Origin: Nitrospira japonica
GTDB lineage: Bacteria; Nitrospirota; Thermodesulfovibrionia; UBA6902
Length of the DNA: 64,000 bases
Direction of reading: 5' to 3'
Assembly (NCBI GenBank): GCA_020723105.1
Contig: DYJL01000008.1
Coordinates: 10,564 to 74,563, forward strand
Made by a program: the position numbers and the translations under genes. The stretch's first letter is position 1. Every line of letters begins with the position of its first letter. Of the stretch, positions 10,101 to 47,841 are shown one piece after another. The notes beneath the pieces were generated by a model, which had not been told where the DNA came from, ran no database searches, and saw only the letters and a list, made by a program, of their open reading frames with translations.

Positions 10101-10812
10101 TCAGGTGGTGGGACTATTCATGATGTCTGATGCCTCATATCGTCTTGCGGACAAGTTGGGTAATGAGTTTTGGTTTGACCGGGCAGGTTATCTTACCGAC
10201 ATGATCTTTTCTGAGGACCATCATATTCATGTTGAATATGCTGACAGTTTTACTGACGCTTTTGAAGAAATCCCTTATCAGATCCAGCCTGCAGGTAAAG
10301 AGCAAACGGCATTTCTTAATGTCTTCATACCAAGAAAAATGACTGTTAAGAACCTCATCAGTGGAGATAGCGAGATCCTGACCTTCAGTGAAGAAGGCGA
10401 ATTTGCTGGATATGTTCCTGAAAATGCGGAAAAGAGCAGCTATAAAATATTAGCGCTAATGTCAGATGCATCTTTCCATCTGCTTGATAAGAATGGGAAT
10501 GAGACGTCATTCAGTTCCTTGCGGACTTTTGATGGAAAATTTAAAGAGATGGCTTTTTCTTCTGATCGCAGAATGGTGAGATCCGTGTCACAGGGCAATC
10601 AAAAGATCGGTTTTAAATATTCTATAGACAGATCAGGAGAAGTTATGATAGCCAGCGCCAATCTCTCGGAAGGCGAAGAAACAAAACTGAGTTATATAGT
10701 GAAATATAAATATGATAAGGAAGGCAGGCTCTATAGTGTAACTGGGACGGGGAATACAATAGCTAAAACTCAACATCAAAATAATGAAATGCTGATGCAT
10801 GTGAAAAAATAG
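7105..10812 (+). CDS. Large secreted protein (1236 aa), unknown function, internal tandem repeats
   Basis: Signal peptide MKTAKSKTLLFTFISVLFLSCIAYA precedes DQF. An ~100-aa tandem repeat starts at PAGDAKRKFLNVLIPEKM... and repeats at PAGKEQTAFLNVFIPRKM.... A second repeated motif is SSRFWFKPSKEK / SSRFWFVPEDMK. I recognise no known catalytic motif. Confidence 0.7.
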   Translation: MKTAKSKTLLFTFISVLFLSCIAYADQFIAFSLNKAEMEMRESGRSHKNRLFELGGITRPVGIVYDANRSDLIVVGQINEKEQKISLDDFVVALRAISVYKESPLVSIDRSDETETTKRQRVRFEGGIENTKFGKDLLEADIILKKMGVGELRTDIWGVKSYVDMSAEYWNKTGIEDSVSSRFWFKPSKEKSFVGVRDGVVIVKKLVIDVKTEVMGAINSHRPVDDRAGSYDEIGDRFASAVAANIDDIDSYYSEVKRLDPLFRLVGLAEGIKREAFNFKPDINFWLNEYRVEHIETLKDYPLLVKEKRLEKNGENRQMTINGGIELRPLLVDLNAGVVTALRDIVIKSRPEGNPLIWKLPLEGWQLPEDSKIDITAFGKKLRDSTAGVNGMSLTKRISPVDSPGNQKINYKSSPLSDGGSNFNFTDRFSPQKYSPHVGGVMLQGVAKVSGGEQAKVDLTSGNFSLIVGGQNARLAPEAYRKFITALWSVYYSQKDPGISIDPIGCFYFDPYDPERDKKFAECLKRYEKKEEKHMVRYIGKVINTDLGRVMREADYVMKKWSVGTEKPGISGFKSPDEYRGWKTTDSEGSSRFWFVPEDMKFKRGGDMLLFEDGRMTVKTEYMFKNDEGAQADPYNEKFAGFFTEHYGEIANKYPVYQELFEYAKMVSLAKYLKEQGLPMFWFLMANKDLVITEDSPGTVEALAKGSDYYKNLYIMGGVDLGFDARREGNYVYDREAVRAINEAVSKLPLNAYSKTTLSAGDITPASSEPFSFNLGKDSFTVVPQHSLTSGKDRHGIRYQTDIALRGTGLQLTGRALETIKNKIIRWMMVQELNPILRTKDTTKLSEAEIEALNKRITEETEKAKTKAGKIIEKMESLKNIKYTDENKFVKALEETIGREKTDIFKRMVMEFAYYNTNLDLVRYFKPGQQDIGEFGKGWHLLIPYRLKPAGDAKRKFLNVLIPEKMAVENQLTGDQEVLTFSTDRYTVAGYVPAKLESSQVVGLFMMSDASYRLADKLGNEFWFDRAGYLTDMIFSEDHHIHVEYADSFTDAFEEIPYQIQPAGKEQTAFLNVFIPRKMTVKNLISGDSEILTFSEEGEFAGYVPENAEKSSYKILALMSDASFHLLDKNGNETSFSSLRTFDGKFKEMAFSSDRRMVRSVSQGNQKIGFKYSIDRSGEVMIASANLSEGEETKLSYIVKYKYDKEGRLYSVTGTGNTIAKTQHQNNEMLMHVKK

Positions 10813-11863: not shown

Positions 11864-14557
11864 TTGAAAAACATAATTTTAAATATCAACGGCAGAAGTA
11901 TTCAGACTGTTGAAGGCCGAACAGTCCTGAAGGCTGCGAGAGAAAACGGGATCTACATCCCTACCCTTTGTTACCATCCCCGTACAAAACAGGCCGGCAA
12001 GTGCAGAATATGTGTTGTAGAAGTTGAAGGTTTGCCTGGTTTGAGAATATCCTGTTCGCTCGAAGCAAAAGAGAACATGGTCGTGCTTACAAATACAGAG
12101 CGCGTCCTTGAAACCAGAAAGATGATTGTTGAGTTGTATCTGTCAAGCGGCAAACACAACTGTATTTCATGTGAAGCAAACGGCCGTTGTGAACTGCAGG
12201 AAGTTACATACCGTCTTGGCATAGAGAAGTCCACCTTCCCTGTATTGACTAAAGATTATCCGCCTGATACATCCAGCCCGATGATAATCAGGGACCTGAA
12301 TAAGTGCATTCAGTGTTACCGGTGCATTGCCGGATGCAATAATATCGCAGTTAATGAAGTCCTCGATATGGGGTTTCGGGGCAGCAATATGACTGTAGTC
12401 TGCGATACAAACAAGCCGATGGGAAAATCTTCATGCGTGATTTGCGGCGAATGCGTTCAGCTCTGTCCGACAGGCGCGCTGACAGAGAAAAAGGCCTTTG
12501 GCAAGGGAAGGCCCTGGGAGATAAAAAAAATCAAGACCACATGCCCCTACTGCGGTGTCGGCTGTCAGGTTCATCTGCATGTCAAGGATAATGAGATTGT
12601 GAAAGTGACTGGTGTGGAGGAGGTTGCTCCCAATTACGGCAGCTTATGCATAAAGGGAAGGTTCGGATACGATTTTGTTCATTCTCCTGAAAGATTGAAA
12701 ATGCCGCTTTTAAGAAAGAATGGTAAATTTGTTGAAGTCAGTTGGGATGAGGCGCTCGATTTTACTGCAAGCAGGCTCCTTGAAATTAAAAAGGCCCGGG
12801 GGCCGGAATCTATTGTCGGCATCGGCTGCGCAAGGACTACGAATGAGAACAACTATGTTATGATGAAATTCATGCGTGCGGCAGTTGGCACCAACAACGT
12901 AGACCACTGTGCGCGCACCTGACACGCTCCAACTGTAGCCGGTCTGGCTGCAACTCTGGGTGCAGGCGCAATGTCCAATTCCATCAGGGAGATTGAGAAC
13001 AGCCCGGTCCTGTTTGTAATTGGTTCAAATACAACAGAAGCACATCCGGTTATTGCCAACAGTATGAAGAGGGCCGTCAAGAAGGGCAGCATCCTTATTG
13101 TTGCAGATCCGAGAAAAATTCCCCTTACGCGCTGGGCCACAAAACATTATCAGCATAAGGTAGGTTCAGACATTGCCTTGCTGAATTCAGTGATGCATGA
13201 GATTATAAAAAACGGCTGGCACAACAAAGAATTCATCAGCAGCTATACCGAAGGATTTGATGAATTACAAAAGGTCGTCAGCGCTTATCCACCGGAACGC
13301 GCTTCAGAGATATGCGGAGTTTCAGAGGATGGAATCAGAGAACTTGCAATGCTGCTCGGCACGGCTGAGAGAGTTGCGCTTTATTACACACTCGGAATTA
13401 CCGAACACGTTACAGGGACAGACAACGTCAAAACCTGTGCAAACCTGCAAATGCTTCTCGGCAATATCGGCAAGGAATATACCGGCGTTAATCCATTAAG
13501 GGGGCAGAACAATGTTCAGGGAGCCTGTGACATGGGAGTGCTTCCGGATGTGTTTACAGGATATCAGAAGGTGGCTGATGAAACGGTCCGGGAGAAGTTT
13601 GCAACTGCATGGGGTATTAATTCTTTGCCTGAAACCGCAGGCACAAAAATACCGGCCATGTTTGACGGAATGCTTCACGGCGACATTAAGGCGCTCTATC
13701 TTGTTGGTGAAAATGTAGTGATGTCAGAACCCCATCAGGCGCATACAATCAGGGCGCTTGAAAAACTCGAGCTTCTCATTGTGCAGGATATTTTTTTCAA
13801 TGAGACTGCGCAATATGCGCATGTGGTTTTACCGGCTGCGTGCTTTGCCGAGACAGAAGGGACCGTCACCAATACTGAGAGGCGGGTTCAGCGCGTCAGA
13901 AAGGCCGTGGAACCGCCAGGACAGGCTAAGGAAGACTGGTGGATTATCAGTGAGCTTGCAAGAAGGATGGGCTACCTTATGGACTACACGTCAACAGAGC
14001 AGATATGGGAGGAAGTTCGCAAATTAACGCCAAACATTTCCGGTATTACATTTGAAAGGATCGAGCGAGAGGGCCTTCAATGGCCCTGTCCGGATATTAA
14101 TCATGCCGGTACATGTTATCTTTACTGTGACAATATATTTCCCTGCGGCAAGGCCAGGTTTCAACCTGCACAGTGGAAACCGCCGGCAGAGGTTCCTGAC
14201 AGGGAATATCCGTTTGTGCTTACAACAGGCAGAAGGCTCTGGCATTATCACACAGGGACCCAGATACGAAAATCTGCAGGATTTGATGATGTCTTCCCTG
14301 AGGAACTTATCGAGGTAAACAAGGAAGATGCCGGAAGTCTGGGTATAAAAAATGGCGATTATATCCGCGTTGTCTCACGCAGAGGAATGCTGAGAGTAAA
14401 GGCCTGGGTTACGGACCACGTTTCACCAGGCTTGTGCTTTATGACCTTTCACTTTCATGAGGCCTGTGCAAACGCTCTGACGAACAATGCCTTTGACCCG
14501 TTTGCAGGCACTGCCGAATATAAGGCATGTGCAGTGAGGCTGGAGAAAGAGGGATAG
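11864..14557 (+). CDS. fdhA: Formate dehydrogenase alpha subunit, selenocysteine-containing (NAD-type with N-terminal 2Fe-2S/4Fe-4S NuoG-like domain)
   Basis: TTG start. The N-terminus has a 2Fe-2S ferredoxin and 4Fe-4S motifs (CIQCYRCIAGC, CVICGECVQLCP). Context VDHCART-TGA-HAPTVAGLAATLGAGAMSNS places the TGA at 12920-12922 at the conserved Sec position of FdhA/FdhF. The downstream ORF (12971-14557) is in the same frame. A SECIS-like hairpin lies 13 nt after the UGA. Confidence 0.85.
12935..12951 (+). other. SECIS-like hairpin downstream of fdhA UGA
   Basis: GUAGCC-GGUCU-GGCUGC forms a 6-bp stem (including one G-U pair) with a GGUCU apical loop, like the E. coli fdhF SECIS apical loop. Confidence 0.55.
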
Positions 14558-15315: not shown

Positions 15316-16203
15316 CTACCCCCTTTTTCTTCTTATCCCCATAATTATTCCAGCCTCTATCCCCAGTGTGCCTATGAAAGCAAGCACCGGATAAAAATAT
15401 ATAGTCTCTTTCTCCTCTGTCTCAAGGGCAACATAGTACCATGTAGAGACAACCTTTCTACCGCCCCTGTCACCTTCAGAGCCATTCCATACTGCAAGAG
15501 AAAGTGGGGTGACGCTGCCTTCCCTGAAAACAACGTCGAATTTATCCTGAGATGTCAGGGGCCGCTTAAACACAACAAACCATTTCCCGGACTGCCATTT
15601 TCCGTTACCGCTGATGTTTTGGATATCAGCCTTTTCCAGATCAGTTGCGTTTCCAAAGCCCTGAGCGATTATATTTTCAACAGGTGAAATTCTCGCTCTT
15701 GATACAGGATTGCCGACCTCAAGGCCTCCGGCAAATTCATCTGATGTTGCATAGGTACTATGCATGTCATTTGCATTTTGCCATGAAGCTTTCCAGAACC
15801 AGATATTTACAGGATTGTCTTTGTCGCCCATTGCAAAATGCGGTTTGGATGCAGCAGCAGATGAGGGAAATTCCAATGCCACGGCATCAGAGAACTTATC
15901 TACATCTAATGACGAATCTTCTGAGGCATCACTCCACTCAAGCAGAAAGGCCATTTCTTTTGTGTTGTGCAGGGCCCGGACCTTTAAATTTTTTACAGAA
16001 GATTCATAGGTCCTCGGTTTTGCCATAACCTGTGGAGCGAGGGGAATTTCAATGGCAGATGCATTGTTCCAGGCGCTGTTATCAGCTTCAAGGGGCAGAT
16101 CACCCGATACCTTCTTTGCCATGACAACAAGACCCTGGGAATAGGCATCAAAAGACAGGAGGAAAAAACAGAGAAGAGCGAAAATAGTTATCATTGCGAG
16201 CAT
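15316..16203 (-). CDS. Gamma subunit of type II DMSO-reductase-family enzyme (EbdC/NxrC-like, haem b), membrane-anchored
   Basis: A start at MLAMITIFALLCFFLLSFDAYSQG gives a signal peptide. The longer ORF extending to 16431 consists of REP repeats. The EB_dh-like domain and a C-terminal TM helix (FYPVLAFIGTLGIEAGIIMGI) are present. It is adjacent to the beta subunit. Confidence 0.65.
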   Translation of the reverse strand: MLAMITIFALLCFFLLSFDAYSQGLVVMAKKVSGDLPLEADNSAWNNASAIEIPLAPQVMAKPRTYESSVKNLKVRALHNTKEMAFLLEWSDASEDSSLDVDKFSDAVALEFPSSAAASKPHFAMGDKDNPVNIWFWKASWQNANDMHSTYATSDEFAGGLEVGNPVSRARISPVENIIAQGFGNATDLEKADIQNISGNGKWQSGKWFVVFKRPLTSQDKFDVVFREGSVTPLSLAVWNGSEGDRGGRKVVSTWYYVALETEEKETIYFYPVLAFIGTLGIEAGIIMGIRRKRG

Positions 16204-16210
16204 AGTGTGC

Positions 16211-16301
16211 TGTCCGTAACAGTTCTTTACACTGTCATTGCGAGGGACGAAGTCCCGAAGCAATCTCACTACGAGATTCCTCGCTTCGCTCGGAATGACA
16301 A
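16211..16301. repeat. REP/MITE-like palindromic element, family A (inverted pair of GTCATTGCGAG...GAAGCAATCTC units)
   Basis: The sequence is CTGTCCGTAACAGTTCTTTACAC-TGTCATTGCGAGGGACGAAGTCCCGAAGCAATCTC-ACTAC-GAGATTCCTCGCTTCGCTCGGAATGACA. It lies in the beta-gamma intergenic spacer. Confidence 0.65.
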
Positions 16302-16345
16302 AGCTGTAAAGATATTTAGCTGACAGGACAATAGGAAAGCAATCT

Positions 16346-16396
16346 TTCTTTTGACTACGAGATTGCTTCACACCCTTTGGGTGTTCGCAATGACAT
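16346..16396. repeat. REP family A single unit (reverse orientation)
   Basis: GAGATTGCTTCACACCCTTTGGGTGTTCGCAATGACA has an internal palindrome CACCC(T/A)AAGGGTG. Confidence 0.55.
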
Positions 16397-16440
16397 CTGA
16401 ACTTGTCTTCATAAATTTGAAATTTTCTCATTATCCCCTC

Positions 16441-17637
16441 CTATGTTATGTTATGCCTGTAGACTTGCAGTTTTTCATCATGGAAGGGCCTGATAAAGAC
16501 AGGCTCTTTTAAGGGCACCTTTACCAACTCTTTACCCTTTTCACCATAACCAGTAACAATGCCCTTTGATACCCTGAATTTTGCGGACCAGAACTCTGTT
16601 GAACCAAATAGCGTCAGAGCCCCCAGCAGGGTTTCATCTTTATGGGCATTTTTGTATGCCGCGACCGCATTCGCAGCATCCGGCCCGAACATCTGTATCA
16701 GATAAGGAAGTGGAACATGTATAGGCGGAATATAATATATATTAGGCTCCAGGCCAAGCTGCGGGTAGAGGGGTAACGCAATCTTCTTGATGTGAACCAG
16801 ATAGTCCACAGGATTTGCAGGGTCCGGCTTATCAGGGGTATGCAGCCAGCCATTAAGTCGTATCCTTCCGATGCAGGTTGTCACACACTGAGTCTGGTGT
16901 CCCTGTTCTGCAAGCGGATAGCAACCAATACATTTTTCAGCTATCTTTGTCGTGTTATTGAAAAGAACTTTTTTATAGGGACAGGCCCTTACGCATTCTC
17001 TGTAGCCTCTGCACCTTTTCTGATCCACAAGGACTATGCCGTCTTCCTCTCTCTTATAGATAGCCTTTCTCGGACAGGCTCCCACACAGGCTGGATATGT
17101 GCAATGGTTGCAAATGCGGGCGAGATAGAAATGCCATACCTTATGAGGCATTGTTATAAAATCACCCTTATCTATTGAGCCAGATGGTTCGTCTTCACCG
17201 ATGTTTGGATGGGCCCAGTCAATTTCCTCAGGGATATAGCCCTGAGCCACCTGCCCCTTTGGTGCAGCCTCAAATATTGTATTGCCTTTATAAACTTTCC
17301 CTTCCCATTTTTGAGGGCCCAGTAAATCCAGTATCTTCACGTCCCACGCCAGCGGATAAAACCCATACGGCTTTGACTCAACATTGTTCCAGAACATATA
17401 CTCCTGCCCCTTGCCCGTGGTCCATGTGTGTTTGCATGCCATGGTGCAGGTCTGGCAGGCAATGCACTTGTTGATGTCGAATACCGCGGCAAACTGTTTC
17501 TGCGGCCTTACTTCTTCGTATGGATAATACATCTCCCTCTGAATCTGCCAGTTCTTTACTTTATTTTTAGCCATTAATCCCTTACCTCCGTAGATTGCTT
17601 CGTCATCCCGAAGAATCGGAATTCCTCGCAATGACAA
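16441..17637 (-). CDS. Beta (Fe-S) subunit of Nar/Nxr-type oxidoreductase (NarH/NxrB-like)
   Basis: CIACQTCTMACKHTWTTGKGQEYMFWNNVESKPYGFYP matches the NarH N-terminus. Further ferredoxin motifs are CNHCTYPACVGACP and CRGYRECVRACP, plus CIGC...C. Confidence 0.9.
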   Translation of the reverse strand: MSLRGIPILRDDEAIYGGKGLMAKNKVKNWQIQREMYYPYEEVRPQKQFAAVFDINKCIACQTCTMACKHTWTTGKGQEYMFWNNVESKPYGFYPLAWDVKILDLLGPQKWEGKVYKGNTIFEAAPKGQVAQGYIPEEIDWAHPNIGEDEPSGSIDKGDFITMPHKVWHFYLARICNHCTYPACVGACPRKAIYKREEDGIVLVDQKRCRGYRECVRACPYKKVLFNNTTKIAEKCIGCYPLAEQGHQTQCVTTCIGRIRLNGWLHTPDKPDPANPVDYLVHIKKIALPLYPQLGLEPNIYYIPPIHVPLPYLIQMFGPDAANAVAAYKNAHKDETLLGALTLFGSTEFWSAKFRVSKGIVTGYGEKGKELVKVPLKEPVFIRPFHDEKLQVYRHNIT

Positions 17638-17671
17638 TCATGTTATATGTCATTGCGAGCGAAGCAATCTC
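17591..17671. repeat. REP family A inverted pair in alpha-beta intergenic spacer
   Basis: The sequence is GTAGATTGCTTCGTCATCCCGAAGAATCGGAATTCCTCGCAATGACA-ATCATGTTATATG-TCATTGCGAGCGAAGCAATCTC. Confidence 0.6.
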
Positions 17672-22614: not shown

Positions 22615-23036
22615 TCTAATCCTCCACTTTTTATATCCCCTATCTTCACCTTTGGTCTTCCACCAAGGCTTTGCATATACGCAACAACAGCCGTTATCTC
22701 TGCATCGTTGAGATATGCAGGCGCTTTATTTGCTGCAGGCATAACATCGGTGCCGTTATAAAGTATTGCTGCCATTATCTCTGCATCCCTTTCAGCGCCT
22801 ATCCTGGAGAGGTCAGGCCCTCTCAATGTTTCACCTCTGACACTATGACAAACGCCGCAGCCGGCTCGTTTAAAGATATCCCTCCCTGCCTCTGCCAGCT
22901 CTGCTGGTTTCATATCAGGAGTCAGGACTTTTTTCTGAGGGGCTTCCCACGCAGACTGTGGAATGGAATTGCCAAACCAGGCGTAGAGTCCTGTAACTAT
23001 CAGGGCCACAATTATCAGTTTCGTACCTCCACTCAT
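22611..23036 (-). CDS. Membrane-anchored monohaem c-type cytochrome
   Basis: An N-terminal TM (LIIVALIVTGLYAWF) precedes a single CxxCH motif (CGVCHS) with a distal Met-rich region. It overlaps both neighbours by 4 nt. Confidence 0.65.
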   Translation of the reverse strand: MSGGTKLIIVALIVTGLYAWFGNSIPQSAWEAPQKKVLTPDMKPAELAEAGRDIFKRAGCGVCHSVRGETLRGPDLSRIGAERDAEIMAAILYNGTDVMPAANKAPAYLNDAEITAVVAYMQSLGGRPKVKIGDIKSGGLE

Positions 23037-27092: not shown

Positions 27093-27148
27093 AACCTCGT
27101 TATACATGTTGCTTGTAATCCATAAAATTACTCTGTTCCAATATTTAC

Positions 27149-27310
27149 AGACATGGAAGGCTGTCTCAGAATTTCTATACGACACCTTTGAAAAGGGATT
27201 AGGGGATAGGGAGTAGGGGGTAGAAGAAAAGAAATAAGAAAAACAGCTTGAGGCAAAAATGTAATATGCCTTTTGTCGTTTATAGAAATTCTGAGACAGT
27301 CTTCCATGTC
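27149..27310. repeat. Family B palindromic element (162 bp) with 35-bp inverted arms and G-rich core
   Basis: The arms are GACATGGAAGGCTGTCTCAGAATTTCTATACGACA ... TGTCGTTTATAGAAATTCTGAGACAGTCTTCCATGTC. The core contains AGGGATTAGGGGATAGGGAGTAGGGGGTAG. Confidence 0.65.
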
Positions 27311-27447
27311 AGAAAAAGATCTTAAATATCTTTTAAGATGTTTGATTAATAACATAAATATTACCCCTGAGAAAGTATGGCTCAGAAGCAATGAATTTAT
27401 AATTGCCTGAGCTTTTGATGAAATGATAATTTAAAAAAGAGTGGAAG

Positions 27448-28200: not shown

Positions 28201-28248
28201 CCCTCTTTCTCCTTGAAAAAGCAGGGATAAAAGAGGTTAAATACACAA

Positions 28249-28722
28249 GTGGACAACAAGGCAAAGCGGCATATCATTAAATTAGTCAGCAGGTTTCCCT
28301 CAAAAGAATCGGCTCTCCTGCCAGCGCTTGCTCTGCTTCAGAAAAAATACGGGTATATCGCCGAAGACGATTTAGTTGAGCTGTCAGAGATAATGAATCT
28401 TCCAGAGGCCCGCGTATTCAGCACGGCCAGTTTTTATTCGATGTTAAGTTTAAAAAAAACGGGCAGATACCATATACAGGTTTGCATGAATGTGGTCTGC
28501 TCTCTTCTCAATGGTGCATCCCTGCTGAGTTACATTTCAGAGAAGCTCGGCATCAGGGAGGGTGAAGTAACCCCTGACGGACTGTTCAGCCTTGCCTCTG
28601 TTGAATGTCTCGGTTCCTGCGGTTATGCCCCGGCGATCCAGATCAATATGGAACATTATGAAAATATAAGTATTGAAAAAGTGGATGGGCTAATCGAGGC
28701 GATAAAGAAAAAGGAAAGATAG
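28249..28722 (+). CDS. NuoE/FdsG/HoxE-like 2Fe-2S subunit
   Basis: GTG start. The thioredoxin-like 2Fe-2S motif C-x4-C...C-x3-C is present (QVCMNVVCS ... ECLGSCGYAP). Confidence 0.8.
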   Translation: MDNKAKRHIIKLVSRFPSKESALLPALALLQKKYGYIAEDDLVELSEIMNLPEARVFSTASFYSMLSLKKTGRYHIQVCMNVVCSLLNGASLLSYISEKLGIREGEVTPDGLFSLASVECLGSCGYAPAIQINMEHYENISIEKVDGLIEAIKKKER

Positions 28723-28723
28723 C

Positions 28724-29962
28724 TTGGAAAAAATATTATCAAGAAACATAAACGTACCTGATTCTCAATCTCTTGACGTATACATAAAACGCGGCGGATA
28801 CGACGCCCTGAAAAAAGCCCTCTCACTTCCCTCTGAAAAAGTTATTTCAATTGTTGCAGAGTCCGGACTGAGGGGCCGGGGCGGAGCGGGTTTTCCAGCA
28901 GGCATGAAATGGAAATTGCTGCCTGCAGACAGAACCGCTGCAAGATATCTCATATGCAATGCAGATGAGGGAGAGCCCGGCACTTTTAAGGACCGGCAGA
29001 TAATAGAATTGGATCCGCATCTCCTGATCGAAGGGATGACCATTGCCGCATATGCAATTGGAGCCTGCAGGGGGTTTATCTATATCAGGGGAGAATATGA
29101 CTGGATAGCCAGGGTTCTCGTCAGGGCGCTTAGAGAGGCTGAGGATAAGGGTTTCAGTGGTGTTGATATATTAAATTCAGGCCATCAGTTTTGCATAGAT
29201 GTGTTCAGAGGAGCCGGATCTTATATATGCGGAGAAGAAACAGCCCTTATTGAATCCCTCGAAGGCAAGGCCGGGAGACCGAGATTAAAACCGCCGTTTC
29301 CGGCTGCCTTTGGACTTTATGGCCAGCCGACTGTAGTGCAGAACGTTGCAACTCTTGCATCTATCCCGTTTATCATTAACATGGGACCGGATGTCTTCAA
29401 GTCTTTCGGAAAGCCCCGAAGCTACGGAACAATGCTGTTTGGCATTTGCGGGCACGTAAATAAATCCGGCGTGTATGAATATCCGATGGGTACGTCTCTC
29501 AAAAAATTAATATATGAGGTTGCGGGCGGAATCAAAGATAACAAAAAATTAAAGGCCGTTATTCCCGGAGGACTTTCAGCCCCGATACTGAAGGCAGATG
29601 AGATAGACATCGAAATGGATTTTGATTCTCTTATTGCCGCAGGTTCTATACTCGGGACCGGCGGTATTATTGTATTGGATGAGGACGTTTCCATACCCTT
29701 TGTGGCACAGAAGGCAGCCAGGTTTTTTGCCCATGAATCCTGCGGGCAGTGCACCCCCTGCCGGGAGGGGACCAGCATGCTTAAACTTCTGATAGACCGG
29801 ATAGCTGCAGCTGAGGGAAGTTTGGCAGACATTGAACAGGTACTGAGATTGTGCCGCTATATCAAAGGTTCAACCCTGTGCGCCATGGGCGACGCCGCAG
29901 CCTTCTCAGTCGGGACGATGGTGAAGAAATTCAGGGAGGAGTTTGAGGCGTTGGTGAAATGA
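28724..29962 (+). CDS. NuoF/FdsB/HoxF-like NAD(H)-binding FMN/4Fe-4S subunit
   Basis: TTG start. GRGGAGFPAGMKW matches the FMN/NADH site. C-terminal ESCGQCTPCREG is the 4Fe-4S motif. Confidence 0.85.
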   Translation: MEKILSRNINVPDSQSLDVYIKRGGYDALKKALSLPSEKVISIVAESGLRGRGGAGFPAGMKWKLLPADRTAARYLICNADEGEPGTFKDRQIIELDPHLLIEGMTIAAYAIGACRGFIYIRGEYDWIARVLVRALREAEDKGFSGVDILNSGHQFCIDVFRGAGSYICGEETALIESLEGKAGRPRLKPPFPAAFGLYGQPTVVQNVATLASIPFIINMGPDVFKSFGKPRSYGTMLFGICGHVNKSGVYEYPMGTSLKKLIYEVAGGIKDNKKLKAVIPGGLSAPILKADEIDIEMDFDSLIAAGSILGTGGIIVLDEDVSIPFVAQKAARFFAHESCGQCTPCREGTSMLKLLIDRIAAAEGSLADIEQVLRLCRYIKGSTLCAMGDAAAFSVGTMVKKFREEFEALVK

Positions 29963-29994
29963 AACATAACCAATAATAATATTTGACAGGAGAT

Positions 29995-30133
29995 CGAAAA
30001 ATAGAGATAGAGGGTTGTCATTGCGAGCAAAGCGAAGCAATCTCGTCTTTTTCAATGAGATTGCCACGAACCCTTCGGGTTCTCGCAATGACAGGTAGAA
30101 TATAGTGTTTCTCATTCTATCTCTATTTTTCGG
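29995..30133. mobile_element. MITE-like element: 17-bp terminal inverted repeats flanking a REP-family-A hairpin pair
   Basis: Left TIR is CGAAAAATAGAGATAGA (29995-30011). Right TIR CCGAAAAATAGAGATAGAA is the reverse complement at 30116-30134. The interior is GTCATTGCGAGCAAAGCGAAGCAATCTC...GAGATTGCC...CTCGCAATGAC. It produces the spurious ORF 29906-30115 (RLLRFARNDN). Confidence 0.6.
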
Positions 30134-34573: not shown

Positions 34574-34611
34574 AAGTTCTCCACGTTAAATTTATTTAAG
34601 ATATGTTATCC

Positions 34612-34772
34612 GACATGGCAGCCTGTTTCAGAATTTCTATAATCGACAAACGGCATATTACATTTTTGCTTCAAGCTGTTTTTCTTATTTCTTCTTGACT
34701 ACCCCCTACTCTCTATCCCCTAATCCCTCTTCAAAGGTGTCGTATAGGAATTCTTCTACAGCCTCCCATATC
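34612..34772. repeat. Family B palindromic element, second copy (core inverted, about 90% identical)
   Basis: The sequence CGACATGGCAGCCTGTTTCAGAATTTCTATAATCGACAAACGGCATATTACATTTTTGCTTCAAGCTG...CCCCTAATCCCTCTTCAAAGGTGTCGTATAGGAATTC is the reverse complement of the 27149-27310 core. Confidence 0.65.
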
Positions 34773-34879
34773 TGCTAACTATTAGAACAGAGTTCGCTAT
34801 GAATAGTCGTGACTAAGAATATTAGTGATGAGTATAATCTTTTGTCAATAAGCAGTATTCTATTTGTTATAATCTCTCT

Positions 34880-42799: not shown

Positions 42800-42963
42800 A
42801 GTATCTCCTTTTTAAGTGGTTTTTACTGATTTGTTGATAACATGTTACCTGATAACTTTGAAGAGAAAATGAATAAAATATGAAGATTATGTGAAGATTG
42901 TGAGTCCATGATATTTTTTTGCCCGGATGAAATGATATACTATTGTCCTGTCAGCTAAATATC

Positions 42964-43064
42964 TTTACAGCTTTGTCATTCCGAGCGAAGCGAGGAATCT
43001 CGTAGTGAGATTGCTTTGGGATTTCGTCCCTTGCAATGACAGTGTAAAGAACTGTTACGGACAG
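42964..43064. repeat. REP-family-A palindromic element (mirror copy of 16211-16301)
   Basis: The sequence is CTTTACAGCTTTGTCATTCCGAGCGAAGCGAGGAATCTC-GTAGT-GAGATTGC...CTTGCAATGACAGTGTAAAGAACTGTTACGGACAG. The terminal 21 nt is the reverse complement of 16211-16231. Confidence 0.6.
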
Positions 43065-43104
43065 CACACTAGCCAAAAATAATTTTAGAAGGAGTTATGA
43101 ATAG

Positions 43105-43686
43105 ATGAAAATAACCAGAACTGCTGCCGGCATGGTTGTTATTTTATTTTCCCTCGGCATATTTCTGTCCGGATGCACAAAGGATAAAAGCAATCATGAG
43201 CTTACTGAAAAAACCCCAATTGCTGAATTAATGGCAGCAATGAATATCAAGCATATTACACAACCAACAGGCGCCCCTGATTTTGAGCTGTTTTCTGTAA
43301 AAGGCCAAAAGGTAAGTCTCAGTCAATATCGCGGCAAGGTTGTTTTACTGAGTTTTTGGTCTACATGGTGACCCTGGTGCAGGAAGGAGTTGCCTTCCCT
43401 GGAAAAGCTTAATCAGATTTTCAAAAACGATAAATTTGTACTTTTAGGTATTGATATAGGAGAAAACAGAGACACCGTCTTAAGCCAGGTTCAGCAATAC
43501 GGGCTTACTTTTGATAATTTACTGGATGAAACAGGTGAAGTTAGCGCTGGTTATGCAGTCCGTTCCACCCCGGTGAAATTTATTATTGATGCTAAAGGAA
43601 ATCTGATTGGGTTTTCACTTGGCTATAATGAATGGGATAGTAACGAGATGCAGTCCTTAATCCGGCGGTTAATGGAGGCAGGCTAA
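43105..43686 (+). CDS. TlpA/ResA-like thiol:disulfide oxidoreductase lipoprotein, selenocysteine in active site (UxxC)
   Basis: Lipoprotein signal ...FLSGC is present. The thioredoxin-fold context VVLLSFWSTW-TGA-PWCRKELPSLEKL puts the TGA at 43369-43371 exactly at the first Cys of the WCxxC motif. ORF 43390-43686 is in the same frame and continues the Trx fold. A SECIS-like hairpin lies 9 nt downstream. Confidence 0.7.
43380..43401 (+). other. SECIS-like hairpin downstream of UGA in tlpA-like gene
   Basis: CAGGAAGG-AGUUG-CCUUCCCUG forms an 8-9 bp stem with a one-nt bulge and a 5-nt loop containing GU. Confidence 0.45.
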
Positions 43687-44015: not shown

Positions 44016-44058
44016 TTCTCAGCCTTCATGCTATTAATCATCAAACATCTATTTAAAA

Positions 44059-44081
44059 TCTTTCAGTTGACATGGCAGCCT
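44059..44081. repeat. Family B minimal/solo-TIR remnant
   Basis: GACATGGCAGCCTGTTCCATGTC consists of the left-arm start and right-arm end only. Its downstream flank (AAACAAAGTTCGCCATGAAT) resembles the flank of the 34612-34772 copy (AACAGAGTTCGCTATGAAT). Confidence 0.4.
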
Positions 44082-44175
44082 GTTCCATGTCAGCAAACAT
44101 TTAAACAAAGTTCGCCATGAATTTATTATACGATAACAAAACAACTTGAAGAAAATATGAATTCATCTACGACAA

Positions 44176-46330: not shown

Positions 46331-47041
46331 ATGTTAGGCTTCTATACAATGGGGATTTTGCAAAACCTCGCAACGGTTCAGGAAAGAATTAATAGTGCAG
46401 CTATTAAAGCTAATAGAAATCCTCAGGACATAAAACTTATAGCTGTCACCAAGACAGTTGACTTGCCGGAAATTATTGAAGCAGTAAAGGCAGGTATATT
46501 GATTTTAGGTGAAAGCAGGGTGCAGGAAGCGCAGAGAAAAGTTGCAAGTTACAAGGTGCAAGGGGTAAGTGAAAGAATTGAGTGGCATTTGGTCGGGAAT
46601 TTACAGAAAAATAAGGTTAAAAATGCCATTCAGTTGTTTGATCTGATACACTCGATTGATTCAATATCATTGGCAGAAGAAATAAATACGCAGGCAAAAA
46701 AGATAAACAAGACACAAAGAGTTCTTGTTCAGGTAAAGATCTCGAAAAAAGAAACAAAACGTGGAGCAGATGAAAAGGACTTAATGGCATTGGTTACGGA
46801 AATTACTGAAACGTCCAACCTCAAACTTGAAGGACTGATGACTATTCCGCCATATTTTGAAGATGCGGAACAAGCAAGGCCCTATTTCAGGAGATTGAGA
46901 GAGTTAAGAGACGAAGCGGAGATGGCAGGGTTTAAACTACCGGAGCTTTCAATGGGAATGTCGAATGATTTTGAAATAGCAATAGAAGAAGGCGCGACAA
47001 TGGTAAGAATCGGAACCGCGATATTCGGGGAGAGGAAATAA
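46331..47041 (+). CDS. yggS: YggS-family PLP-binding protein (PLP homeostasis)
   Basis: The alanine racemase N-terminal-like fold is present: IKLIAVTKTV, HLVGNLQKNK and TIPPY. Confidence 0.85.
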   Translation: MLGFYTMGILQNLATVQERINSAAIKANRNPQDIKLIAVTKTVDLPEIIEAVKAGILILGESRVQEAQRKVASYKVQGVSERIEWHLVGNLQKNKVKNAIQLFDLIHSIDSISLAEEINTQAKKINKTQRVLVQVKISKKETKRGADEKDLMALVTEITETSNLKLEGLMTIPPYFEDAEQARPYFRRLRELRDEAEMAGFKLPELSMGMSNDFEIAIEEGATMVRIGTAIFGERK

Positions 47042-47841
47042 TGAAAATAGGTTTTATCGGCGGTGGTAACATGGCAGAGGCCCTTATAAAAGGGATAAGG
47101 GACAAGGGACAAGGGGTAAGAGAAAATATCTTTGTGTCGGAACCGAGGGATGACAGACGAAGATATTTAGAGCAAACACACGGGATAAAAACAACATCAT
47201 CCAACAAAGAGGTAGCATATTCATGTAATATAATAATCCTTGCTGTCAAGCCGCAGAATATGGAAGCTGTGCTTGATGAAATTAGTCCGGATATTACTGT
47301 AGAGAAGACCGTGGTTTCAATCGCCGCGGGCATTACGCTGGCATATTTATCATCAAAGCTGAAGACTAAAAAACTGATAAGGATTATGCCCAACACTCCT
47401 GCGCTTGTTCAGAAGGGGATGTCAGTCATGTCTCTTTGTGAATGTTTTTCTGATAATGATATATTGGTTGTGAGAGAAATTTTTATGTCAGTAGGCGAAG
47501 TTCTCACCCTGCCAGAGAAGTATATGGATGCTGTGACTGCTGTTTCTGGGAGCGGCCCTGCTTTTATTGCTTTTTTTATTGAAGCGATGATAGAAGCTGG
47601 GGTAAAATTAGGCCTTAGTGAAGAGAATGCATTTACCCTTGCGGTGCAGACTACAGTTGGCACAGCAAGATTATTGGAAACAGGAATGCCACCATCAAAG
47701 CTCAGAGAAATGGTAACATCACCCGGAGGCACTACCGCAGCAGGATTGAAAGCGTTTGACGATAAAGGATTTAAAAAAATTGTGTCAGATGCAATAATGG
47801 CAGCAAAAAACAGGGCTGAAGAGTTAGGGAGAAAGGAATAA
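47041..47841 (+). CDS. proC: Pyrroline-5-carboxylate reductase
   Basis: The NADP-binding N-terminus IGFIGGGNMAEAL and the ProC C-terminal dimerisation region (SPGGTTAAGL) are present. Confidence 0.85.
   Translation: MKIGFIGGGNMAEALIKGIRDKGQGVRENIFVSEPRDDRRRYLEQTHGIKTTSSNKEVAYSCNIIILAVKPQNMEAVLDEISPDITVEKTVVSIAAGITLAYLSSKLKTKKLIRIMPNTPALVQKGMSVMSLCECFSDNDILVVREIFMSVGEVLTLPEKYMDAVTAVSGSGPAFIAFFIEAMIEAGVKLGLSEENAFTLAVQTTVGTARLLETGMPPSKLREMVTSPGGTTAAGLKAFDDKGFKKIVSDAIMAAKNRAEELGRKE

Follow-up and report, generated by a model that had tools for sequence, protein, structure and literature searches.

The 64,000-nt stretch of Nitrospira japonica DNA analysed here (assembly GCA_020723105.1, contig DYJL01000008.1, forward-strand positions 10,564 to 74,563; hereafter the window) carries two 161-bp palindromes, copy 1 ahead of a universal stress protein (USP) gene and copy 2 between a PEMT-like gene and nrdJ, together with a 23-bp remnant of the same palindrome. 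The three sites probably represent one family of ~250-bp non-coding, non-autonomous repeats that has proliferated in an uncultured clade of Nitrospirota. Both full copies, first pointed out in an earlier note on this DNA, are real and lie far above chance: with as many as 3 mismatches allowed, a 30-nt arm pattern matched the window 3 times, where 100 shuffles led one to expect 0.00, and a 15-nt arm-end pattern matched it 5 times against 0.32 expected. The density amounts to two full copies and one short form per 64 kb, and the homologues of the window's nrdJ belong to Nitrospirae/Nitrospirota.

The palindrome (P) is the middle part of a larger unit, which reads, 5' to 3', module A (an ATG and an AT-rich hairpin), P, and module B (TTGGAACGGAGTTCGCC-ATGAAT, also written GGAACGGAGTTCGCC-ATGAAT), the last consisting of a Shine-Dalgarno (SD)-like GGAG followed after 7-8 nt by an ATG. 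In the alignments, conservation begins at TATGTTATTAATC (module A: TATG-TTATTAATCATCAAAGATCTTAAAA..TTTAAGATCTTTCAGCC), ends at CTGCAACCATTGGAACGGAGTTCGCC-ATGAATA and is absent outside; the outer ends of the unit, TATGTTATTAATC... on the left and ...GCCATGAATA (also given as GGAGTTCGCCATGAATA) on the right, form no convincing inverted repeats. Profile scans found modules A and B almost exclusively beside P. A search with the arm sequence, proposed in the earlier note, turned up further copies beyond the window (these and other comparison loci are referred to below by number, L002 and so on): a metagenome scan with a 21-nt left-arm pattern gave 83 loci from groundwater and sediment, about 71 of them with a full P, about 10 further loci being chance matches, and a genome scan gave two copies in the Nitrospiraceae metagenome-assembled genome (MAG) SURF_45. 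A second subfamily has GATAGGG arms and other conserved flanks. Searches of plasmids, phages and viral contigs returned no family match, and an origin from any of these was rejected; Rfam 15 gave no gathering-score match in the window, 8 loci were without a match even at E <= 1, and literature searches for a described Nitrospirota repeat yielded nothing relevant. The family, a set of composite palindromic repeats of uncultured Nitrospirota, is real and previously undescribed; the kind to which it belongs, bacterial repeats that are junk or regulatory, is a known one.

Within the window, the two full copies had been taken for a core flipped between fixed arms, a misreading caused by the near-palindromic arms themselves. 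Positions 27148-27316 and 34606-34774 are 88% complementary along the whole 169 nt in a repeat search, and the asymmetry of the arm bulge (TATACGACA versus TATAAnCGACA) moves together with the core, so that copy 2 is the complete element in reverse complement. Read in the direction of the element, the flanks of all three sites can be aligned, and copies 1 and 2, on opposite strands, have equal orientation relative to their own conserved flanks and downstream genes (USP and nrdJ). The other suggestion of the earlier note, independent insertions of miniature inverted-repeat transposable elements (MITEs) in both orientations, is thus essentially right for the window. Its coordinates hold for copy 2 (34612-34772, plus strand), were off by 1 at the start of copy 1 (27150) and off by 10 for the remnant (44069-44091, not 44059-44081). 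The similarity that it had seen between the flanks of copy 2 and the remnant is likewise borne out (AGTTCGCYATGAAT at 34791-34804 and at 44109-44122) and belongs to the family-wide right-flank module. The parts of the three units are listed in Table 1.

Table 1. Parts of the three family units in the window, with positions counted from its first nucleotide.
Part	Position	Strand	Description
Copy 1, palindromic core P	27150-27310	minus	Profile match P- (E=4e-37); ~35 bp near-perfect stem; loop G-free, C/T-rich
Copy 1, module A	27311-27355	minus	ATG 27355-27353, then TTATTAATCAAACATCTTAAAAGATATTTAAGATCTTTTTCT with AT-rich hairpin
Copy 1, module B	27118-27149	minus	TGTAAATATTGGAACAGAGTAATTTTATGGAT; profile match B- at 27128-27150
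Copy 2, truncated module A	34586-34611	plus	GTTAAATTTATTTAAGATATGTTATCC; adjoins divergent PEMT-like gene start
Copy 2, palindromic core P	34612-34772	plus	Profile match P+ (E=3e-37); right arm degenerate
Copy 2, module B	34773-34808	plus	TGCTAACTATTAGAACAGAGTTCGCTATGAATAGTC
Short-form unit, module A	44028-44068	plus	ATGCTATTAATCATCAAACATCTATTTAAAATCTTTCAGTT; profile match A+ at 44027-44066
Short-form unit, mini-P remnant	44069-44091	plus	GACATGGCAGCCTG-TTCCA-TGTC; full sequence GACATGGCAGCCTGTTCCATGTC
Short-form unit, module B	44092-44122	plus	AGCAAACATTTAAACAAAGTTCGCCATGAAT; ATG 44117-44119; profile match B+ at 44092-44122

Module A of copy 1 was matched by its profile (A-) at 27315-27353 and agrees with the family consensus ATGnnATTAATCATCAAAGATCTTAAAA..TTTAAGATC, and the truncated module A of copy 2 was delimited from alignments of other units, which begin at 34586-34588. 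The module B ATG of copy 1 (27123-27121) starts a 7-codon mini open reading frame (ORF) whose end lies 10 nt ahead of the USP start (27092); that of copy 2 (34799-34801) starts a 5-codon ORF, 78 nt upstream of the nrdJ start (34880). The remnant retains the outer stem only, as a 9-bp hairpin with the loop GCCTG, and keeps both flank modules. The arms of copy 1 (36 nt, 92% complementary) are homogenised and its stem is very stable, the RNA fold of the whole unit reaching -71.8 kcal/mol (z = -5.3), whereas the copy 2 unit folds no better than its shuffles (z = -1.05). No intrinsic terminator was predicted at either copy, and the stem has no trailing U-tract. Antisense to copy 1, on the plus strand at 27188-27216, lies a G-quadruplex motif with four G3+ tracts (GGGATTAGGGGATAGGGAGTAGGGGG); it was rejected as a feature of the family, since copy 2 has only three such tracts and elsewhere in the family they are missing, with CTGACTA or CCATAAC repeats in their place.

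The consensus of P, GACATGGAAGCCTGTTCCAGAATTTCTATAATCGACA ... TGTCGTATAGAAATTCTTCCACAGCCTTCCATGTC, describes a stem of ~35 bp that closes on a G-poor loop of ~90 nt and is interrupted twice, by a conserved internal mismatch and by a 2-nt bulge. Across 63 distinct copies 93% of the cells of the stem are paired, and the outer helix shows double (compensatory) changes at 11 of its 14 pairs (44 cells, where shuffles gave 8 +/- 2.3 and 0/500 reached as many); the inner helix is invariant, partly since the search pattern falls inside it. The asymmetry of the arms resides in the internal mismatch, which reads TTCCA on both strands, and in the 2-nt bulge, which yields TATAAT in the left arm of 59/63 copies; the other arm has TATACG. 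Promoter prediction gave a 10/12 sigma-70 match in copy 2, and the consensus -35 element, ATGGAA, is weak (3/6); the left-arm TATAAT may act, as far as its sequence goes, as a weak outward promoter. The loop has a conserved 5' part followed by a variable part of differing short repeats (CTGACTA, CCATAAC, CTTAACTC, CCCTAATCC), and whichever repeats make it up, the variable part, read along the A-to-B strand, is poor in G (8% G, 74% pyrimidine). RNAalifold predicted no conserved structure besides the long stem, and the hairpins of A and B are mostly pairable and show no significant covariation; these results, together with the lack of an Rfam match, led us to reject a known RNA family. A reading of the 5-bp TTCCA repeats on either side of the inner inverted repeat as the duplication left by a nested inner MITE would be an appealing account of how P arose, but it was also rejected, for TTCCA flips with the core in inverted copies and shows no covariation; it is uninformative on present mobility. 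Small GC-rich hairpin insertions, such as GTAAGGGCGTATTGCAATACGCCCCTAC, CCTGCCTGCCGGCAGGCAGG and ATCCCGAAGAATCGGGAT, are nested as additional short palindromes in the core or the right arm of P in L015, L038/L045, L024, L005 (first copy) and L041.

Among 21 B modules with a recognisable ATG, this ATG opens a long ORF in 8 distinct loci (the count treats L023 and L084, near-identical copies of one locus, and likewise L064 and L069, as one each), and at many loci B runs precisely into the opening codons of an unrelated gene of the host. The genes begun in this way, encoding CobO, BioD-like, response regulator, HdrA-like, NuoF-like, UDG and DUF2064 proteins, are mutually unrelated; in four of them the Pfam domain starts as early as residue 2 (CobO), 3 (BioD-like AAA_26), 8 (response-regulator receiver) or 12 (Pyr_redox_2) after the ATG of B, and no alternative start is possible in these. 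Judged from these reading frames, B supplies the SD sequence and the true start codon of unrelated host genes. One further case is L030, where the unit sits exactly between NuoE-like and NuoF-like genes that abut in the window (stop 28722, start 28724): the ATG of A aligns with the native start, and the ATG of B starts a NuoF-like protein of equal length up to the conserved GGY(D/E)AL motif. In L002 the ATG that ends an older short-form unit is followed at once by a full unit. At the nrdJ locus, homology between the window and the element-free orthologous spacer of L094 resumes only at GTGACTAAG (34809), and the ATGAAT there is consequently part of the element and not of the host. Most units lie in sense orientation upstream of genes, at gene starts or inside operons; by a hand tally of the raw locus listing, ~22 units are co-oriented with the downstream gene against ~7 that are not. 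A common regulon or B12 riboswitch, suspected from nrdJ and CobO, was rejected given the functional heterogeneity of the downstream genes.

Two side observations belong to these comparisons. In L094 (GCA_016213945.1), positions 1535-1769 of the PEMT/nrdJ spacer hold GTCATTCCGGCTTGTCCGGAATC / GATTCCCGACAAGCGGGAATGACAG hairpins in the place of copy 2, so that the repeat families found in this spacer differ from lineage to lineage. An orthologue of window 13655-14552 precedes the NuoE-like gene of L030 (the NuoE/F side of the window being 28234-29230). The two points are 13.7 kb apart in the window, where a nitrate-reductase-like cluster, the genes of the Crp-family regulator and of USP, and copy 1 lie between them; from the L030 lineage this stretch is missing, or it has been moved elsewhere.

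P has changed direction within otherwise fixed units. Between the orthologous loci L008/L036 and L026, with flanks 87-88% identical, A and B are collinear and P is opposite; the inner asymmetric features, including the TTCCA motifs, are flipped with P, which places the inversion breakpoints in the outer 14 bp. A second orthologous pair, L042 and L075, also has P inverted relative to A and B, and both inverted pairs are only 86-88% identical. By profile, 41 copies have P in the standard orientation and 4 have it flipped, about 3 more being flipped by eye (~4 to 8 of ~45 classifiable), and a flipped P is common to L012 and L070 at 83% identity, which argues for an inversion that is rare and stable rather than a fast switch. 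As far as these alignments reveal, arm-to-arm inversion of P occurs in the family, and it looks sporadic, not programmed. Hairpin-mediated inversion, as once proposed for the two window copies, thus fails for that pair and holds for the family.

Deletion has left clear traces as well. The spacer between AA-kinase and PAP2 genes forms a decay series, with a full P in L081 and L091, the right arm and B only in L093 and the left half only in L068, and the right arm is missing in L028 and L035. The window remnant is the expected product of a deletion between the left-arm TTCCA (positions 15-19) and the TTCCA ending CCTTCCATGTC in the family consensus. Its former interpretation as an excision footprint therefore stands insofar as it is a footprint of loss; excision by a transposase need not be invoked, as a TTCCA-TTCCA deletion accounts for it. 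The mini-P of L002 has a junction unlike that of the window remnant, and hence these short forms each arose by a deletion of their own and do not represent one shared empty site. Turnover of copy 1 must be recent, because a relative 96% identical to the window over 12 kb (L096, a Logan contig) lacks it. In place of the 243 nt that carry A, P and the beginning of B in the window, L096 has 48 unrelated nt; it retains the 3' half of the copy 1 module B (ACAGAGTAAT..ATGG) without P, and no family profile match was found anywhere on its contig.

Taken together, the unit is best read as mostly neutral, non-autonomous repetitive DNA that tolerates positions at gene starts by means of its own SD and ATG. 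A newly arrived unit would bring its own initiation region and replace the native one of the gene, and this would make insertion at gene starts tolerable. Once inserted, the long palindrome acts as an unstable DNA structure: recombination between the arms inverts P with breakpoints in the outer 14 bp, the arms become homogenised as in copy 1, and slippage between short direct repeats removes the interior, giving the window remnant and the other short forms. As to how the unit moves, our preferred guess is mobilisation in trans, because the unit has no convincing terminal inverted repeats and no target duplication, has subterminal hairpins and carries an ATG at both junctions; a single-strand HUH-type enzyme would suit this, as would recombination at SD-ATG-like sequences. 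Several of its traits would be compatible with an IS200/IS605-derived, palindrome-associated element (no convincing terminal inverted repeats, no target-site duplication, a hairpin in A with weak covariation, the sense bias, and an ATG both on the left flank and at the right end); no TnpA was found. In size and copy number the unit resembles a MITE, being a ~250-bp non-coding, multicopy and dispersed sequence with a 160-bp core; the inverted arms (35 bp) bound P alone, and the conserved unit extends past them. A bolder version of this scheme, to which we attach only slight probability, would make the unit a portable translation-initiation cassette. It would integrate at or just after host start codons by a single-strand or site-specific mechanism recognising SD-ATG-like sequences and replace the native initiation region with a promoter-like arm, an unstructured C/U-rich leader, an SD and ATG-AAT, and its flippable core would serve as an orientation-dependent rheostat over dozens of Nitrospirota housekeeping genes.

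Several observations weigh against the interpretation as neutral mobile repeats. No transposase, integrase or invertase domain was detected in 50/55 window ORFs (at least 110 aa), and neither an autonomous partner nor a cognate insertion sequence with the same ends appeared in the window or at the ~90 loci. No target-site duplication surrounds P (..CAGCC/GACATGG...CCATGTC/TGCAA.., slashes at the junctions) or the whole unit, only ATG recurring at both junctions; the sole transposase-like neighbour, a RayT fragment in L048, is a separate nested element. Copy 1 and L096 do not differ by a clean insertion: 243 nt have been exchanged for 48 nt, and 24 nt of non-family sequence are part of the exchange. 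Spread by recombination or gene conversion is accordingly as compatible with it as transposition is. The strongly G-poor loop (8% G) and the retention of TATAAT in 59/63 copies hint at a function beyond that of selfish DNA. Finally, in 21/37 copies the frame from the ATG of A is open through P, which holds for the other two frames in 5 and 0 copies, and it often stops at the TAA within ATGAATAA, so that some selection for translatability, and with it a leader function, is possible.

Such a leader would be a cis-regulatory RNA in which the co-transcribed hairpin (an RNase III target or a thermosensor), an upstream ORF from the ATG of A and TAA/ATG coupling at ATGAATAA control translation from B, an explanation that we consider unlikely. 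It would accord with the sense bias, with the use of the ATG of B as a start codon in 8 distinct loci, with the G-poor, unstructured loop reminiscent of an S1-friendly leader, with the covariation of the stem, and with the open A frames, 17/21 of which end 4-32 nt beyond P (6 of these at the TAA of ATGAATAA). Yet no functional theme unites the downstream genes (nrdJ, USP, CobO, BioD-like, NuoF-like, UDG, response regulator), ~7 units (~1/4) are antisense or stand before a convergent gene, with L081 and L091 lying between convergent genes, and 16/37 copies (43%) have stops inside P. Moreover, no conserved structure was predicted past the main stem, and neither the hairpin of A nor that of B covaries significantly; covariation of the stem can also come from gene conversion between the arms at the DNA level; and copies from the same genome are 88% identical over their full length, which is repeat-like and unlike a riboregulator conserved in its motifs only. 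The open frame and an SD-like sequence upstream of the ATG of A in several loci could also speak for a multicopy gene of a small protein of ~75-90 aa (MLLIIKDLKIYLRSFSRHGSLFQNFYNRQ...). This we find barely conceivable, and a conserved small protein was rejected: substitutions show no codon periodicity (positions 1/2/3: A 0.29/0.27/0.29; B 0.31/0.25/0.25) and no third-position excess, P lengths differ by indels that are not multiples of 3, the internal stops recur here, the peptide from the ATG of A has a single match among 5.8e9 (5.8 billion) predicted proteins, and both arms are conserved at the nucleotide level irrespective of frame.

If the arms were inverted REP sequences, the doublet might be spread as single-stranded DNA by a domesticated RayT (RAYT, a Y1 HUH enzyme) encoded elsewhere, as in REPINs. 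The unit shares with these the two inverted ~35-nt arms and spacer forming a single long hairpin, the high copy number, the chromosomal location and the lack of a target duplication; RayT-like genes are abundant in related Nitrospirota metagenomes, and one P copy (L048) adjoins such a gene. We nevertheless judge this improbable, for the RayT fragment of L048 lies in its own 23-bp inverted-repeat unit, independently multicopy (L087-L089) and merely inserted into P, no RayT, cognate or otherwise, occurs in the window or beside any other copy, the short GC-rich hairpin typical of REP sequences is missing from the arms, and conserved modules A and B, with SD and ATG, reach well past the arms. REPINs are not known to have such conserved extensions. 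The fragment itself is a RayT-like (Y1_Tnp) piece of 73 aa within the 23-bp inverted repeats GGGTCAGGTCTTGTTTCTTGCAT / ATGCAAGAAACAAGACCTGACCC (L087 300-700, L088 2450-2800, L089 2080-2420, L048 1-260); its unit is multicopy in the groundwater metagenome 3300045072, and most of its protein-database homologues are similarly short (70-123 aa). A programmed inverton, in which a site-specific recombinase flips P so that the TATAAT arm and C/U-rich leader point toward the gene (ON) or away from it (OFF) and vary the phase of USP, nrdJ and others, is less credible still, and we hold it to be very unlikely. Like fimS-type promoters and Bacteroides invertons, P is an inverted-repeat-bounded segment of ~130 bp found in both orientations upstream of genes; both orientations occur against collinear A and B at the two orthologous locus pairs, by profile a flipped P occurs in about 4 to 8 of the ~45 copies that could be classified, the breakpoints fall within a defined outer 14-bp inverted repeat, and the TATAAT/TATACG asymmetry of the arms is conserved. 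The opposite orientations, however, separate only lineages that are 86-88% identical, a flipped P is stable over long times, as its presence in both L012 and L070 at 83% identity implies, the predicted -35 is weak, the copy 2 stem is no better than shuffled sequence, and the members of this multicopy family decay freely by deletion. The invertible promoter envisaged in the earlier note is thus disfavoured as a programmed switch, because the inverted state is stable at 83-88% divergence and no recombinase gene, adjacent to a copy or elsewhere, was found among 50 scanned window ORFs.

The reading as mostly neutral repeats with a built-in start can also be set beside better-known families. The Correia elements (CREE/NEMIS) of Neisseria and the ERIC sequences of enterobacteria are palindromic MITEs of ~100-160 bp with long inverted arms; they occur in both strand orientations, are mostly intergenic and co-transcribed with their neighbours, have internal-deletion variants and carry outward promoter-like hexamers in their arms, and in them the target duplication is TA and the true ends of the element are formed by the terminal inverted repeats. 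P matches them in size, long inverted arms, both orientations, internal-deletion variants and promoter-like hexamers; the Nitrospirota unit differs in that no target duplication was found and in that it continues for ~50 nt (A) and ~35 nt (B) past the arms to non-palindromic ends. In function, by analogy, the whole unit most resembles the REP2 sequences of Neisseria and the inverted-repeat (IR) sequences of Borrelia, which lack terminal inverted repeats, have internal stem-loops and fuse a promoter, a ribosome-binding site (RBS) and an ATG to downstream ORFs (Delihas 2011, PMC3184786); REP2 sequences are contact-regulated promoter elements of Neisseria, and the IR sequences of Borrelia plasmids are analogous (PMC3184786). 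The likeness consists in a dispersed unit of more than 100 bp with no convincing terminal inverted repeats at its ends, with internal stem-loops, translated-looking ORFs of its own and an RBS and ATG that serve as the start of the downstream ORF. The differences are that no sequence relationship exists and the phylum is another one, that the Nitrospirota unit measures ~250 bp against 120-150 bp for REP2, that it contains a very long palindrome (35-bp stem, 160 bp) that is invertible and deletable, and that its promoter is weakly predicted and no coordinated regulon is evident. The Nitrospirota unit shows the full set of defining features of none of these families and is homologous to none.

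Other repeats share the window. A 140-bp unit at 29994-30133 has a perfect 17-bp inverted repeat, CGAAAAATAGAGATAGA / TCTATCTCTATTTTTCG, around a GTCATTGCGAG...CTCGCAATGACA palindrome. It is missing from the 96%-identical L096, where the empty site reads GACAGGAGA/GGTAAT, and in the window AGGAGA stands on both sides; this clean presence/absence comes with a 6-bp duplication, AGGAGA, and the duplicated hexamer is the SD of the CooT-like gene that follows (ATG 30151). The outer inverted repeat of this unit also flanks the GATAGGG subfamily of P in L061, L077, L080 and L048. Hairpins of the form GTCATTGCGAG(G/C)...GAAGCAATCTC make up a separate family (16186-16398, 17617-17667, 30016-30093 and 42933-43071), presumably the "Family A" of the earlier note, and 16203-16341 and 42933-43071 are 96% identical over 139 nt in inverse orientation. 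Compared with window 22626-22641, positions 11300-11405 of L096 hold an extra ~105-nt palindromic unit (GGTACAAGTGGCAAAGT...ACTTGCCCCTTGCTACTTGTACC), missing from the window, in a style like that of the window repeats at 46526-46574 and 47077-47125. Adjoining the 42933-43071 repeat, an AhpC/TSA-type peroxiredoxin is split over two adjacent ORFs, 43105-43371 and 43390-43686 (profile positions 5-37 and 45-121), which may represent a frameshifted pseudogene or a sequencing error.

Small palindromic repeats are familiar from well-studied pathogens and hardly from uncultured subsurface phyla. The family described here joins two behaviours that are usually reported apart, the long unstable palindrome of Correia, ERIC and REPIN sequences and the built-in RBS and start codon of Neisseria REP2, and its built-in RBS and ATG take over the translation initiation of unrelated housekeeping genes. 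There are practical consequences too: the units break assemblies, Logan contigs ending at P (the end of the L096 contig included), they cause spurious or misplaced start-codon calls in the annotation of MAGs, and they provide strain-level markers, as copy 1 does in telling apart genomes of 96% identity. Should the leader, the promoter or the inversion prove functional, the unit would be a genome-wide modifier of expression in Nitrospirota.

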